A stretch of DNA of 64,000 bases, from contig OZ220744.1 of NCBI GenBank assembly GCA_965116925.1, positions 3,552,001-3,616,000 on the forward strand, in the 5' to 3' direction. The DNA is from Candidatus Poribacteria bacterium. GTDB taxonomy: Bacteria; Poribacteria; WGA-4E; PCPOR2b. Shown piece after piece: positions 33,554-39,392 of the stretch (positions within the stretch are counted from its first letter, which is position 1; each line of letters starts with the position of its first letter). Position numbers and translations under genes: made by a program. The notes below the pieces were generated by a model. That model saw only the letters and a program-made list of their open reading frames with translations, ran no database searches and was not told where the DNA came from.

Positions 33554-34507
33554 TCAGGCTTTCGCTTCGGAATGCCGATGAAAGGAGAGCTCAGAGCGGA
33601 CGACCGAAAAGTCCATACGGGTATAGAGTCCAATCGCCTGAAGATTTTTGGCTTGCGTGCCGACTTGGATCTCTGATGTCTTCCCCTGATAGTGTCGAAT
33701 TGCCTCCGCGACCAATGCTTTACCGATCCCCCTGCCGTGGAACGCCGGATCCACCGCAATCAATTCAATTTCCCCTACCGTTTCTGTACCTACTTTCGAT
33801 CGGAGCAGCGCAAATCCGACAATGCGCTTTCCGCTCTCCGCAACATAAATCGCTTCGGCACGTCCCTTGAACCCGTTACGCACCCATTCACGCCGCGAAT
33901 GACGGGCGCGGGGTTCAGGGATCTGCGGATCGACCCGTAACCGAAACGATTGAAAGGCGCGATAAGCAATTGACGCAACCGCCTCCATTTCGTCCGGCTG
34001 CGCGAGTCGGATATGAAAATCGGATCCACCGTCAAACGGAATCTCACCGGCGGTCTTTCGCCCAAAGGTCAGAAATGATTCGATAACCCTGAACCCCACC
34101 CCTTCGACTGCGTGGAGCGCGGCTAATCCATCTTCAGGGAGCCGAACCGACAGAAAACGAACCCCGTGATCCTCCGCATCCGCAATACACGCCTTCAGAA
34201 CGCTATCAAGTCGATGGCACTGTTCAGTATACTCCCCCTCCGCCCACAACCCTCCAACTGAACCCGACGAGCAGCCAAGCACTTGACTATCCCACGGCAG
34301 AAATCGCCAGCCCACCAACGCCTGCAACCGATCCTCTTGACGCAGCCACCACGCACGGGTGTCTGAGTCAACCGCATAATCGAATGCCGAACGCAACGCC
34401 TCCGGATTAGCTGTTGTACAAGCCGCGAGACACTCGTGGTTGACAAGTTCGACCATTTCTTTTGGAGATGCTCCATTGCTGAGTTGTGCCTTCGGGGGAT
34501 TCTTCAA
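33554..34507 (-). CDS. GNAT acetyltransferase (WecD-like)
   Basis: LPWDSQ, ELIAVDPAFHGRGIGKAL and VGTQAKNLQAIGLY motifs. Confidence 0.85.
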   Translation of the reverse strand: MKNPPKAQLSNGASPKEMVELVNHECLAACTTANPEALRSAFDYAVDSDTRAWWLRQEDRLQALVGWRFLPWDSQVLGCSSGSVGGLWAEGEYTEQCHRLDSVLKACIADAEDHGVRFLSVRLPEDGLAALHAVEGVGFRVIESFLTFGRKTAGEIPFDGGSDFHIRLAQPDEMEAVASIAYRAFQSFRLRVDPQIPEPRARHSRREWVRNGFKGRAEAIYVAESGKRIVGFALLRSKVGTETVGEIELIAVDPAFHGRGIGKALVAEAIRHYQGKTSEIQVGTQAKNLQAIGLYTRMDFSVVRSELSFHRHSEAKA

Positions 34508-34518
34508 TCTTGCTCCTT

Positions 34519-34825
34519 TAGGACTTACGCAGTTAAAAGATGAGGTGTTAAGGTAGCATGAGTGAGATTAAAAAGGTTACGTTTCGCCTGCGAAAATCAA
34601 ATTTTCCCAATTTTCCCGCGCAAATGGGAAAATTGTCCCTATTTCAGCATGAAACGTTTCGTCATGCCTGCCAATGGCATTACAAACAGTTACAAACAGT
34701 TACATTACAGGACCCTTGATGGTGCGTCTACTGTGGTCGCCCGATTCATCAGGGGTTGGACATTGTGTTCTGCGGTGATAAATCGCCGAACTACAGGATT
34801 TTGACACTCAACTGCGTAAGTCCTA
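34519..34825. mobile_element. MITE-like element with 16-bp terminal inverted repeats
   Basis: TAGGACTTACGCAGTT (34519) and AACTGCGTAAGTCCTA (34810); non-coding interior with REP-like hairpins. Confidence 0.7.
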
Positions 34826-34838
34826 TCCTTATTGGACC

Positions 34839-36440
34839 TCAGTACCGTTCAATGACGAGGTGTTTCATGTTTTCGATCAGGTCTGCGTAATTCGTAAGTT
34901 TGGCGTCAAACTGGATTTCTAATGGAGACAGAAGGTGTTGAAAATGGGGACTGAGGAGAATGATTGCAAAGTCCTCCTGTAGAATCGAAATCACCTTCTG
35001 TCCAATCATCCTTCTTTGGGGTATATTCATCGTTTCGTCTAACTGAGAGAGCAGCGCATTCACCTCGGGATTGGCATAGCCAAAAGCGTTAGTTCTCCCT
35101 TGAGGGTGAAAGTATTGAAACAATCGGTTATAATGCTCCCCAAAGAAAATTCGGCTTAAAAAGACATCTGCTTCTCCCCACATATTTTGCAGCCCATCTT
35201 CTTCAAGAAAAACGGGATTAATTGTCGACTTTCCTACCGATTTTCCAACTTGATTAGCCACATAGAGAGCCATTGATACCTCTTTCGGATAAATTATATT
35301 CAAGTCAAGGGCAGAGTGCTTTGTAACTTTCGTCACATTTTCGTCAAGGTGTTGTCCGCCGTGAAGATAGCGGTTAATCGCTTGATAATCGATCGCCTCC
35401 TTCAACCAACGGCAGTTGCTTTCGTCTTTGAGCAAACCGTGACAACGATTGAGGAACATCAGATAGTAGGCTTCCCCGAAAAAGGGGGCCTGCTGCAACG
35501 GTAGGTCGTTGGAAATCTGGTACATAGGTTGCAACGCATCAAGGCGTATAAGATCGATTTTTTGGTCGAGGAGGGCTTTGATTGCATACGCGGCGTGCTT
35601 AAAGCGTTTGATGGTGATCCAGTCAATTCCGCCTTTCTTCTCTTGATAGTAATCTGGATTCCGCGTAAGTCGAAAATTGATGGCTTTCGGGCTGAAGCTC
35701 TTCTTCAAGCGATAGGCACCGGACGTCACGCGATACGGATGGTGCGAATGGGCTGGGCGGATGGGGAGACTGGCAATATGTCGCGGAAATGTTGATTCCG
35801 CTTTTGTCAACTGGATACGGAATCGGTTTTTGCCAGCAGGTTTTATCTCATCAATCAGTTTTGCGAGACGGCTTTCCGAAATTGTCTGGATAACGTCCTT
35901 TCGTCTAATCGGTTTTCCATCGCTCCAGTGGAGATTGGATCTCAAGGTGATTATCCAAGATGAAAAGTCCTTCGCCGGCTCGATTGCAGTTGCGAGTCTC
36001 CATTCGATTTCTCCGTTCCTATTAATCCAGAAAAGGGAGTCATAACAGAGCCGATCCAGCGAGAATTGGATTGCTGGATGGAGGTTTCCATTAGTAGAGC
36101 GGGTAAACTCCCCGATAGAGAGCCCGTTCGCCTGCGGATGTTCGTCCGGGCTTGCCATACGGATAATGCCGGTGTAAGGGGAGGGATTCAGATGTTCTTG
36201 GAGTCGTCTGTAGATCTCTCTTTTGTAGGGATCGCCTTGGTCAAGTTCCGACAGTAAGAAACGGATCTGATCCGCGTCCAAAGACGGAGTTAGATGTTCC
36301 TTGAGAAGGTTGAGTTCTCCGATGCATTGACTCAGGTATTGCGGTGTGATCCCAACCCCTTGGGCGAGTTGTCTCTTTTTTGCTGACGGGTTCTGTTTCT
36401 GATAGTTAATCAGGTTGATAAGGATATCAATTTTGGACAT
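34839..36440 (-). CDS. HTH + family-5 solute-binding-domain regulator (SgrR-like)
   Basis: N-terminal RQLAQGVGITPQYLSQ HTH; LA.....D...W.ITLR....WSDG.PI...DV and GAYRL...LTRNPDYY; no signal peptide. Confidence 0.8.
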   Translation of the reverse strand: MSKIDILINLINYQKQNPSAKKRQLAQGVGITPQYLSQCIGELNLLKEHLTPSLDADQIRFLLSELDQGDPYKREIYRRLQEHLNPSPYTGIIRMASPDEHPQANGLSIGEFTRSTNGNLHPAIQFSLDRLCYDSLFWINRNGEIEWRLATAIEPAKDFSSWIITLRSNLHWSDGKPIRRKDVIQTISESRLAKLIDEIKPAGKNRFRIQLTKAESTFPRHIASLPIRPAHSHHPYRVTSGAYRLKKSFSPKAINFRLTRNPDYYQEKKGGIDWITIKRFKHAAYAIKALLDQKIDLIRLDALQPMYQISNDLPLQQAPFFGEAYYLMFLNRCHGLLKDESNCRWLKEAIDYQAINRYLHGGQHLDENVTKVTKHSALDLNIIYPKEVSMALYVANQVGKSVGKSTINPVFLEEDGLQNMWGEADVFLSRIFFGEHYNRLFQYFHPQGRTNAFGYANPEVNALLSQLDETMNIPQRRMIGQKVISILQEDFAIILLSPHFQHLLSPLEIQFDAKLTNYADLIENMKHLVIERY

Positions 36441-37968: not shown

Positions 37969-37980
37969 CTGAACTACTCC

Positions 37981-39114
37981 TTACTGTTTGCCGACTGCGG
38001 CTTTGAATGTTTGTTGAGTTAAGGTGGAGTAGAACTTACCGAATTGACGACGGAGATCTATCGCCTCCGGGGATAACTGGGAAATACCTCCCACCGAAAG
38101 CTGTCTGTGTTGCTCACCGAATTGGGCGAGGGCTGCTGCCTGCTCTCGATACGGTGAGGGGAGATCCTCGTGCTGGGGAAAAGGTCCGTCCGCATTGACA
38201 GCCAACACCCCCTCCCAGAGCCGTAGCAACGGATCGTTCGGTGCGAGTTGCAGCCCCTTTTCCAATTCCTTCTTGGCAAGCAGGATTCCCTTGCCGTATT
38301 CCCCACCTTTCTGTAGGTAGATCGCAGCACGTAACGCGTAGGCATGTGGCTCGGATTGAAGATTGGGGATCAGGTGGTCCAAAGGGGTACTTTCTATCTG
38401 TTCGCGCGTGAAGTTAAGGATATCCCGCTCCATCTTCGCTCGATTGTCTTTGATGTGGACGGAGCCCCCCGGATGTTGTCGATACTCTGCGAGCGGAAGG
38501 TTGATCGTTTCAACCCTGAATTCCTTTGCAACCCGAATCCACATCTCATAATCCTGTGCTTTGATATCTCTATACGCGCCGACCTTTTGGTGGACGAGGG
38601 AACGCACCATCACTCCCGCACAGGCGGAGATACATCCCATCAGCATATTGAACAACCGTCTATAATCCGGGCATCGACGGGGTGAGCGGGTACGGATCCG
38701 TCGCCCCGTTGCATCAATGTGATAGTAACCCGTTGCGACCAATCCGACCTCCGGATAGGTTTGAAACAGTTCGACGGAACGAGCGACCTTTTCCGGTAAG
38801 AGGCGATCGTCGTCATCAAGCCGTTGAATATATTCCCCTTGTGCCAACGCCAATCCGCGGTTCACGGCAGAGACCAATCCGTCGTTTTTCTGGTATAGAT
38901 AGGTGACTTTGGGCGTCCGGGAGAAAGAGGAACCTGCTGAAAGATACGGCTTGAGGGCAGATCTTGTGGCGGCACCCTCGTCCGATGAACCATCATCGAT
39001 AATCAGGATTTCGATAAAAGGGTAGGTCTGGGCGAGGACACTATTGACCGTCTCTCGCAAATAGTCTGGACGGTCATGGGTTGGAATAATCACAGATACC
39101 AGTCCCGGAATCAT
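37981..39114 (-). CDS. GT2 glycosyltransferase with TPR-like C-terminal extension
   Basis: VSVIIPTHDR, IIDDGS, RLDDDD and QDYEMW motifs; helical C-terminus (ELEKGLQLAPND). Confidence 0.88.
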   Translation of the reverse strand: MIPGLVSVIIPTHDRPDYLRETVNSVLAQTYPFIEILIIDDGSSDEGAATRSALKPYLSAGSSFSRTPKVTYLYQKNDGLVSAVNRGLALAQGEYIQRLDDDDRLLPEKVARSVELFQTYPEVGLVATGYYHIDATGRRIRTRSPRRCPDYRRLFNMLMGCISACAGVMVRSLVHQKVGAYRDIKAQDYEMWIRVAKEFRVETINLPLAEYRQHPGGSVHIKDNRAKMERDILNFTREQIESTPLDHLIPNLQSEPHAYALRAAIYLQKGGEYGKGILLAKKELEKGLQLAPNDPLLRLWEGVLAVNADGPFPQHEDLPSPYREQAAALAQFGEQHRQLSVGGISQLSPEAIDLRRQFGKFYSTLTQQTFKAAVGKQ

Positions 39115-39218
39115 CGCTTTTCTCCTTGAAGATGTGGGGTGGGATCAAGGGAAGGTGAAACAGACTAACGCCGTTCCGCACCCTCCCTAATGCTCCCAAC
39201 CCACAGGGTATGTCCCTC

Positions 39219-39392
39219 TCACACATCAATATCTTCTTCCCAATCGATGTCGATATGTGTTTCGTAGTGCCCATACGAACAGCAGAGAAGGGATATCCAC
39301 GCAAATTCTTCTTCGGTCTCTGCCTCCGCCTCAACTTTCAAGGATTCCATCGGGAACCCGTTGTCTACCGGGTTGATGATTTGAACTGCCAT
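39219..39392 (-). CDS. Putative RiPP precursor peptide (57 aa; absent from the ORF track)
   Basis: RBS AAGGAG, then MAVQIINPVDNGFPMESLKVEAEAETEEEFAWISLLCCSYGHYETHIDIDWEEDIDV*. It is the first gene before the GT2 and rSAM genes and is followed by a long hairpin (39133-39205). Confidence 0.78.
   Translation of the reverse strand: MAVQIINPVDNGFPMESLKVEAEAETEEEFAWISLLCCSYGHYETHIDIDWEEDIDV

Follow-up and report, generated by a model that had tools for sequence, protein, structure and literature searches.

Does a 57-residue open reading frame (ORF) at the head of a poribacterial gene cluster encode a peptide that is both crosslinked and glycosylated? The ORF lies on the minus strand of a 64,000-nt stretch of Candidatus Poribacteria contig OZ220744.1, called the window below, and precedes a family 2 glycosyltransferase (GT2) and a radical S-adenosylmethionine (rSAM) enzyme. 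Poribacteria, a phylum without cultured members, are abundant in sponges (bioRxiv 10.1101/2023.06.09.544420). Judged by comparison of the sequences, the locus is a real, undescribed family of peptides that are made on the ribosome and modified after translation (RiPPs), with unusually strong genomic evidence for radical chemistry combined with glycosylation. We consider it moderately probable that the precursor is crosslinked through a Cys38 thioether by the rSAM enzyme and glycosylated by the GT2. Coordinates refer to the whole window and are collected in Table 1. G, L and P numbers denote the genomes, loci and protein clusters compared, G000 being the window's own genome.

Precursor gene and its conservation

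The small ORF was present as the first-pass annotation of this DNA had described it, with an AAGGAG ribosome-binding site (RBS) 6 nt before its ATG. The same-strand order after it (hairpin, GT2, rSAM, SBP_bac_5 protein, GNAT) was confirmed, the proteins by Pfam and NCBIfam matches, and no Pfam or NCBIfam model matched the peptide itself. The genome has 410 short ORFs led by an RBS, and only three of them combine Cys-Cys with at least 20% Asp/Glu, namely the precursor and its two paralogs. One paralog stands before a 72% identical rSAM paralog, and the other before a paralog of the regulator, a helix-turn-helix (HTH) protein with a family-5 solute-binding domain (SBP5).

A profile built from 17 precursors retrieved 231 homologous clusters. 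Searched against 176 phylum genomes, it gave 27 clear matches in 14 genomes; a 28th match, weak and containing stops, was left out. The first gene found after the precursor was the GT2 in 14 loci, HTH/SBP5 in 9, rSAM in 3 and none in 1. The small ORF is kept beside homologous enzymes, which the first-pass annotation had set as a check. Three layouts recur: type I, as in the window; type II, in which PMT-like and TylF genes then follow; and a precursor with regulator but without the enzymes. The metagenome scan yielded five loci, and the nearest rSAM relatives (45–91% identity) belong to Candidatus Poribacteria. Across nine precursor orthologs the ratio of nonsynonymous to synonymous polymorphism (pN/pS) was 0.49 overall and 0.25 for residues 30–41. 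These values reflect purifying selection, and the 57-residue ORF is a real, conserved gene.

Residue conservation was counted in the best 120 of the 231 homologs. Trp32, Cys37, Cys38 and Tyr40 each occur in 120/120, Ser34 in 96/120 and His42 in 14/120, while position 39 is Ser in 70, Thr in 43, Gly in 4 and Ala in 3. Since these 120 are the closest matches, the distant precursors count for more. Their cores read G-C-C-S-Y without Trp in L045, G-C-S-Y in L044, C-C-D-Y in L158 and L162, and G-C-D-Y in L164; L041 has Phe in place of Trp, and L179, the G063 peptide assigned by position, RBS and acidity, has C-C-A-T-S-Y. Trp is absent or replaced by Phe in six of them (L041, L044, L045, L158, L162 and L179). 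The second cysteine, Cys38, is the sole residue universal across precursors, and Tyr follows at +2 in all except L179. Ser39 was rejected as a universal sugar site, as the position is Gly or Ala in 7/120 homologs and Asp in three distant precursors.

These counts bear directly on the version of the first-pass annotation, in which three-residue aromatic cyclophanes form at W-x-S and Y-x-H and the Cys pair carries the sugar. Full conservation of Trp32 and frequent conservation of Ser34 among the close homologs speak for it. The Y-x-H site, however, fails with the rarity of His42, and the W-x-S site is weak, Ser34 being missing from some close homologs and Trp being lost in distant precursors. 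The conserved aromatic-x-x core motif of triceptides and cyclophanes was not found in the peptides. In addition, the cyclophane-synthase models and DynA gave the rSAM enzyme 35–56 bits against cut-offs of 310–450 (GrrM 40/310, YhhB 53/445, FxsB 38/370, AmcB 35/425), compared with 112–220 bits for models of Cys-peptide maturases. We regard the cyclophane version as very improbable.

Radical SAM maturase

The rSAM gene was called at 36501–37859, and ortholog starts place its start at 37847; residue numbering here is counted from 37859. PF04055 scored over its cut-off, and the SPASM model TIGR04085 gave 40 bits against a cut-off of 27. The cysteines of the CX3CX2C motif (C107, C111 and C114) are invariant in 18 aligned rows. 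The N-terminus was modelled as three strands and three helices (predicted local distance difference test score, pLDDT, 78–92), resembling a RiPP recognition element (RRE), and aligns to 5wgg and 8vpo. The mean pLDDT of the model was 77, with low values around the clusters. The domain matches and the RRE-like fold uphold the identification as an RRE-rSAM-SPASM enzyme.

The SPASM domain contains six cysteines (342, 364, 400, 403, 409 and 412) in the pattern CX2CX5CX2C. It differs from the canonical seven- or eight-Cys domain (CX2CX5CX3C plus a final Cys), with TIGR04085 still over cut-off. The final Cys is missing in 9/9 rows of the window clade, and the sister proteins P0247 and P0248 are canonical. 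We read the cluster ligands by published patterns (PMC10878394, PMC13692751). In the alignment with 5wgg, which is CteB (PMC10878394), auxiliary cluster I (AuxI) would hold three cysteines and leave one iron open, the arrangement of thioether formers. The thioether enzyme CrpC has a three-Cys AuxI, and thioether formers hold the substrate thiol at this cluster (PMC13692751). In auxiliary cluster II (AuxII) the fourth Cys is missing from all window-clade rows but retained in the sister rows. AuxII normally has four cysteines, PqqE being the one exception (PMC10878394).

The best-scoring NCBIfam models were the geopeptide maturase TIGR04280 (220 bits, cut-off 400), TIGR04463 (181 bits, second and also below cut-off), CefB (144/600) and FlmE/OhkG (131/500), so that 131–220 bits stand against cut-offs of 400–600. 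PapB (112/340) and SCIFF (67/425) followed. The products of the Flm/Ohk systems are themselves given as unknown in PMC12703449. By sequence, the solved relatives were 5wgg (nearest), 8vpo and anSME. By fold, TigE was the top match (TM 0.68, 17% identity), followed by 5why/5wgg at 17% identity. The chemistry is therefore not readable from homology, because no cut-off was reached and TigE led the fold matches.

Compared with the ranthipeptide and thioether maturases CteB, PapB and CrpC, the window enzyme shares the RRE-rSAM-SPASM architecture, the three-Cys AuxI pattern and a Cys-bearing precursor. It differs from them in its 17% structural identity, its scores below the cut-offs and the missing last AuxII Cys. 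The window peptide also lacks the C-x3-D and six-Cys motifs, and the GT2 is dedicated and sometimes fused.

A further possibility is that the enzyme performs non-crosslinking or C-C chemistry on the Cys-x-Tyr core, such as sulfatase-maturase-like Cys oxidation or a link to a Tyr ring carbon, with the GT2 decorating the new group or the free Cys. The atypical six-Cys SPASM of the clade would suit this, and the presence of TigE and anSME among the best structural matches indicates that the fold hosts varied chemistry. Nevertheless, the anSME model reached 78 bits of 349, and the GYW motif of the cyclopropyl synthases TigE/TvgB (PMC10878394) is absent from the rSAM alignment, as is their repeated Val/Ile core from the window peptide. 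A Cys shared by all precursors, and by 57/70 distant Acidobacteria-type loci, is the pattern of thioether formers. Such other chemistry is quite improbable in our judgement.

Glycosyltransferase and its link to the maturase

The GT2 matches PF00535 and its tail was modelled as helical, so the earlier description as a GT2 with a TPR-like tail stands. For the label "SunS-type" no sequence support was seen: neither SunS nor ThuS was found among 18 PDB sequence matches. ThuS appeared at rank 20 (E 0.009, 12%) in a fold search that used a poor GT2 model (mean pLDDT 63.5). That search gave nothing at E 0.001 because the catalytic half of the model is poor. Complex prediction of the GT2 with the precursor scored 0.02 against a mark of 0.32, and the controls did not fold, so that this score weighs neither way.

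Among 29 family genomes the GT2 was found in 14 (E 1e-20), and these are identical to the 14 with a full-length rSAM match, counting G001, where the match lies in frameshifted pieces. A 15th rSAM match, in G018, is a half gene without GT2. As the 29 genomes are kin, this shared profile is supportive and is not a statistical test. Broken or partial modules were observed as frameshifted pieces in L046 (G001), a half rSAM in L047 (G018) and remnants in L048 (G006); L040 (G007) has an rSAM without precursor or GT2.

Natural fusions of the two enzymes were also found. Ranks 9 and 23 of 150 in a deep rSAM search were GT2-rSAM proteins of 818–819 aa, and 21 matches included nine clusters of full-length fusions, 38–82% identical to P0250, with records that lack a name or read "uncharacterized". 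The window GT2 aligned with two fusions at 41% over 313 columns and 38% over 306 columns, tail included, and the window rSAM was 30% identical to the fusion P0250. All rSAM-linked GT2 domains formed one clade (FastTree support 0.998), in a tree without the other GT2s of the own genome, which fell below the score filter. A profile of the tail matched 10/10 rSAM-linked rows, at E values from 5e-11 to a near-noise 0.015, and 0/14 other GT2 proteins. An atlas search with the tail returned unnamed clusters alone, at 0.85–0.90. The fusion P0406 was left out of trees and profiles.

Outside the window's class, G063 carries in a row a GT2, an rSAM, an HTH_11/SBP5 protein and a 54-aa acidic ORF with Cys-Cys. 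The four parts (precursor, GT2, rSAM and HTH/SBP5) are repeated in L158 and G024 as well. In the rSAM trees the window clade groups with P0247/P0248, and the fusions group apart with G063; the backbone is weak. The matching genome profile, the natural fusions and the GT2's own clade and tail tie it to the rSAM, and by these comparisons the GT2 is a dedicated subfamily belonging to that enzyme.

Against this tie, the GT2 might serve another acceptor (a surface glycan, lipid or protein) of a glycosylation island and merely share the operon, with the rSAM alone modifying the peptide. The best GT2 sequence matches are indeed glycan GT2s (the TuaG model, chondroitin synthase and SpsA), and the window also carries a lipid-carrier GT2, an LPG-synthase-like membrane protein and a PMT-like glycosyltransferase. 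Moreover, 3/27 precursor loci pass directly to the rSAM, and in G025 the GT2 is found on a separate contig, where no precursor was seen ahead of it. This is difficult to reconcile with the nine fusion clusters, the restriction of the GT2 clade and tail to rSAM partners and the identical genome profile. The G063 GT2-rSAM pair also stands without other sugar genes in 20 kb. We consider another acceptor unlikely.

The pairing of an rSAM with a GT2 had been called an uncommon combination, and this needs qualification because mycofactocin is a characterized precedent (PMC7491314) and a Bacteroidales screen listed 7 rSAM + GlyS and 41 rSAM + LanC + GlyS areas, uncharacterized (PMC10352776). Mycofactocin (MftA/MftC/MftF) resembles the window system in having an rSAM-SPASM enzyme and a GT2 in one RiPP pathway that acts on a Tyr-containing core (PMC7491314). 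The window pathway might accordingly excise the Cys-x-Tyr core and turn it into a small, sugar-bearing redox cofactor for the neighbouring dehydrogenases. Tyr40 is invariant in the clade, no exporter is linked, a Zn dehydrogenase and an epimerase follow in 9/9 type I relatives, and the dehydrogenase occurs in 15/29 genomes. However, MftC acts on a C-terminal Val-Tyr (PMC7491314), whereas Tyr40 is internal, has 17 residues after it and is preceded by Ser, Thr, Gly, Ala or Asp. The MftF model gave 35 bits of 280, and the examined loci showed no gene resembling MftD or MftE, a genome-wide search not having been made. The dehydrogenase was found neither in G025 nor beside the G063 module, and multiple diverged precursors per genome suit signals better than a cofactor. 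The internal Cys-Cys core, the fused RRE and the TPR-like tail are further differences from mycofactocin. A cofactor product appears improbable.

The glycocin systems (SunS, ThuS and ThgS) are similar in that a GT2 is proposed to glycosylate a peptide with Cys, Ser or Thr available (PMC9811515, PMC12457901). The window peptide differs in having two adjacent cysteines only, without nested disulfides, and in being acidic rather than cationic. No C39 ABC transporter or thiol oxidoreductase is linked to the locus, and an rSAM belongs to the module.

HTH/SBP5 regulator

SgrR-type regulators carry an N-terminal HTH on a family-5 binding domain. The window protein, with its start set at 36440 by orthologs, shares this layout without a signal peptide. 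It matches SBP_bac_5 and has a weak N-terminal HTH (HTH_24/HTH_PafC). Of the earlier "SgrR-like" label, therefore, the domain layout stood, and no SgrR-specific Pfam model matched. The protein is probably a cytoplasmic ligand-sensing regulator. Beside the module it occurs in three distantly related forms, winged-helix-like (window, L158), XRE (G024) and HTH_11 (G063), that is, with three HTH types across three lineages. This repeated recruitment suggests that the peptide-binding-type domain may read the product. The family is expanded, with 1–7 matches per genome in 16/29 family genomes.

A comparable design was observed in Vicinamibacterales-type Acidobacteria (L085–L157, e.g. L093:8001–12819), where a sigma-54 regulator, an rSAM/SPASM enzyme below all NCBIfam cut-offs, a peptide, a secreted SBP5 and a histidine kinase stand together. 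The peptide, found in 57/70 loci, is basic, 24–35 aa long and has one Cys, often in C-P-W. The module looks like an undescribed peptide signalling system, and its one-Cys peptide, secreted SBP5 and two-component system parallel the window. Its rSAMs were rejected as members of the same family, with 25–31% identity, another precursor and loci without GT2. In Erythrobacter (L155:7629–9425), a Cys/Asn-rich repeat ORF precedes a distant rSAM homolog.

Proposed pathway

In the pathway that we favour, the RRE would first bind the acidic leader, as RREs bind leaders elsewhere (PMC10352776). The Cys38 thiol would then bind the open iron of AuxI, and the adenosyl radical would abstract a hydrogen from a nearby residue. 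In the window clade the target would most likely be the C-beta of Tyr40, giving a three-residue thioether ring with a mass change of -2 Da. We hold formation of a thioether to be about evenly balanced, and the exact bond from Cys38 to the Tyr40 C-beta remains doubtful.

Docked through its helical tail to either the peptide or the rSAM, the GT2 would next add the sugar. The Tyr40 phenol is the foremost candidate site, at somewhat below an even chance; Cys37 is the second, more tentative one, and a Ser/Thr site is unlikely. Single-Cys precursors that keep the GT2 (L044 and L164) argue against one Cys per enzyme and tilt the choice towards Tyr. O-glycosylated Tyr has a precedent in cacaoidin (PMC9811515). 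An unusual sugar supplied within the genus by the kinase, nucleotidyltransferase, epimerase, dehydrogenase and WecD-like acetylase is conceivable, and we doubt it. Leader and follower would be trimmed by unlinked proteases, and precursor copies that lack enzymes of their own would mature in trans. The HTH/SBP5 protein may then sense the product in the cytoplasm as a signal, an intracellular role that we propose only tentatively.

Several observations weigh against this reading. The best rSAM trees do not join the window clade and the fusion clade as sisters (a joint clade was not rejected, p-AU 0.37), and a precursor was seen for none of the fusions, which are known as protein clusters alone. 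The G063 peptide has its Tyr at +4, and its precursor-profile E value of 0.098 is no match. L044 and L164 carry a single Cys, no NCBIfam maturase cut-off was reached and the top fold match is a cyclopropane synthase, TigE. HTH/SBP5 occurs in three genomes without rSAM, and 3/6 copies in the window genome have no adjacent precursor. Other glycosylation genes surround the cluster and also occur without rSAM (kinase 21/29, PMT-like 15/29). No exporter or dedicated protease is linked to the cluster, an absence already recorded by the first-pass annotation. Finally, the 120 homologs are the closest of the 231 and the 29 family genomes are related, so the independence of these counts is overstated.

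Neighbouring features

Table 1. Features of the cluster and its surroundings, in window coordinates.
Feature	Positions	Strand	Remarks
Precursor peptide, 57 aa	39219–39392	-	Acidic leader; core W-x4-C-C-x-Y (Cys37, Cys38, Tyr40); acidic follower, variable
Long hairpin between precursor and GT2	39131–39205	-	z -3.0
GT2 with TPR-like helical tail	37981–39114	-	PF00535; fused to rSAM in 9 protein clusters
RRE-radical SAM-SPASM maturase	36501–37847	-	Six SPASM cysteines; last AuxII cysteine absent
HTH + family-5 solute-binding domain	34839–36440	-	No signal peptide; 6 copies in genome
GNAT	33554–34507	-	Best NCBIfam model WecD, 57 bits, cut-off 219; accessory
Zn-dependent dehydrogenase	28791–29840	-	After cluster in 9/9 type I relatives; Rpn-like genes intervene in window; accessory
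NAD-dependent epimerase/dehydratase	27831–28781	-	Follows in 9/9 type I relatives; accessory
GHMP sugar kinase (HddA-like, below cut-off)	13826–14992	-	Directly after epimerase in 5/9 relatives; displaced in window; link uncertain
Sugar-1-phosphate nucleotidyltransferase	12967–13983	-	Same run in 7/9 relatives; link uncertain
Palindrome, 26-bp arms, between divergent promoters	39520–39576	.	Both arms vary among orthologs
Divergent ORF, 90 aa	39681–39953	+	Conserved beside type I and II loci

The long hairpin noticed earlier after the precursor stop was confirmed (-47.3 kcal/mol; 2/200 shuffles equally good). A comparable hairpin was found in 6/9 type I loci (z ≤ -2.7), 5/5 type II loci (z ≤ -2.6) and 0/4 enzyme-less loci, and it likely sets the precursor mRNA level above that of the enzymes. 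The palindrome forms 25/26 pairs in the window, with changes in both arms among nine orthologs. One promoter-like site starts at its right end, and a weaker minus-strand site was seen by eye only. The palindrome is a probable operator; no co-variation with the regulator HTH was seen, G004 and G005 being protein sisters with different half-sites. Type II loci have a different palindrome at the corresponding place. The divergent 90-aa ORF had no family match and by eye looks like a small DNA-binding protein.

Downstream, the GNAT was confirmed on the same strand and is missing from the loci of 2/9 type I relatives, whose same-strand run (counted within 16 kb) extends beyond it. In the window this run is split by Rpn-like genes and an insert of about 12 kb. 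The accessory genes look like a nucleotide-sugar route, yet not a core part. The kinase occurs with up to 10 matches per genome, four of the 15 genomes with the PMT-like gene lack the rSAM, the dehydrogenase is found in 15 genomes and the GNAT in 14 with several mismatches, and none of these genes flanks the G063 module. The PMT-like and kinase genes were rejected as core parts, since both occur without the rSAM.

At 29955–33452 the operon is interrupted by a RelE-like and HTH pair (by eye) and, after it on the opposite strand, Rpn/YhgA-like genes in tandem, both full and truncated. G005 and G007 carry insertions of a similar kind. Genes for a lipid-carrier GT2, an LPG-synthase-like membrane protein and PMT-like GT-C proteins lie at 15091–18857, the PMT-like gene having up to 11 matches per genome in the genus. 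A pair of genes for a 686–700-aa membrane protein and a sigma-54 activator occurs twice in opposite orientation (24267–27821 and 52371–55843). Upstream of the cluster, two tandem ParB-like genes (40206–41737) are followed by defence-island-like genes. The only two C39 peptidase domains of the genome (18869–21256 and 61631–63070) belong to DUF1573/Ig-like proteins with apparent signal peptides and no ABC domain. Such C39/DUF1573 proteins lie 10–22 kb from the cluster in the window genome, G004, G005 and G009. They were not adopted as the leader peptidase, because G011, despite its two clusters, yielded none and the ABC domain is lacking.

Significance

The system would combine the work of a thioether RiPP maturase with that of a peptide glycosyltransferase, and it passes the defining tests of no named family. 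The glycosylated RiPPs named in the portion of a review that we draw on are thiopeptides, lanthipeptides, lanthidins and lasso peptides, none of them an rSAM-thioether peptide (PMC9811515). A literature search, with subscription journals mostly outside its scope, found no description of the precursor/rSAM family or of the GT2-rSAM fusion. Taken furthest, the data might describe a new RiPP class, glycopeptides with a thioether ring that come from a GT-rSAM synthetase in paired or fused form. The lost SPASM Cys would open irons on both auxiliary clusters to grip Cys-Cys, one enzyme set would serve several precursors in trans, and the products would be private signals read intracellularly by HTH/SBP5 proteins. 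We rate this full combination as rather unlikely.

For Poribacteria, the locus provides a defined and directly testable peptide pathway, in which a 57-aa substrate would meet two soluble enzymes or a single fusion enzyme. The six-Cys SPASM domain probes what AuxII requires. If the proposed reading is true, an enzyme that both crosslinks and glycosylates would have value as a biocatalyst, and a peptide ligand of the HTH/SBP5 regulators would account for how far they have expanded in these genomes.

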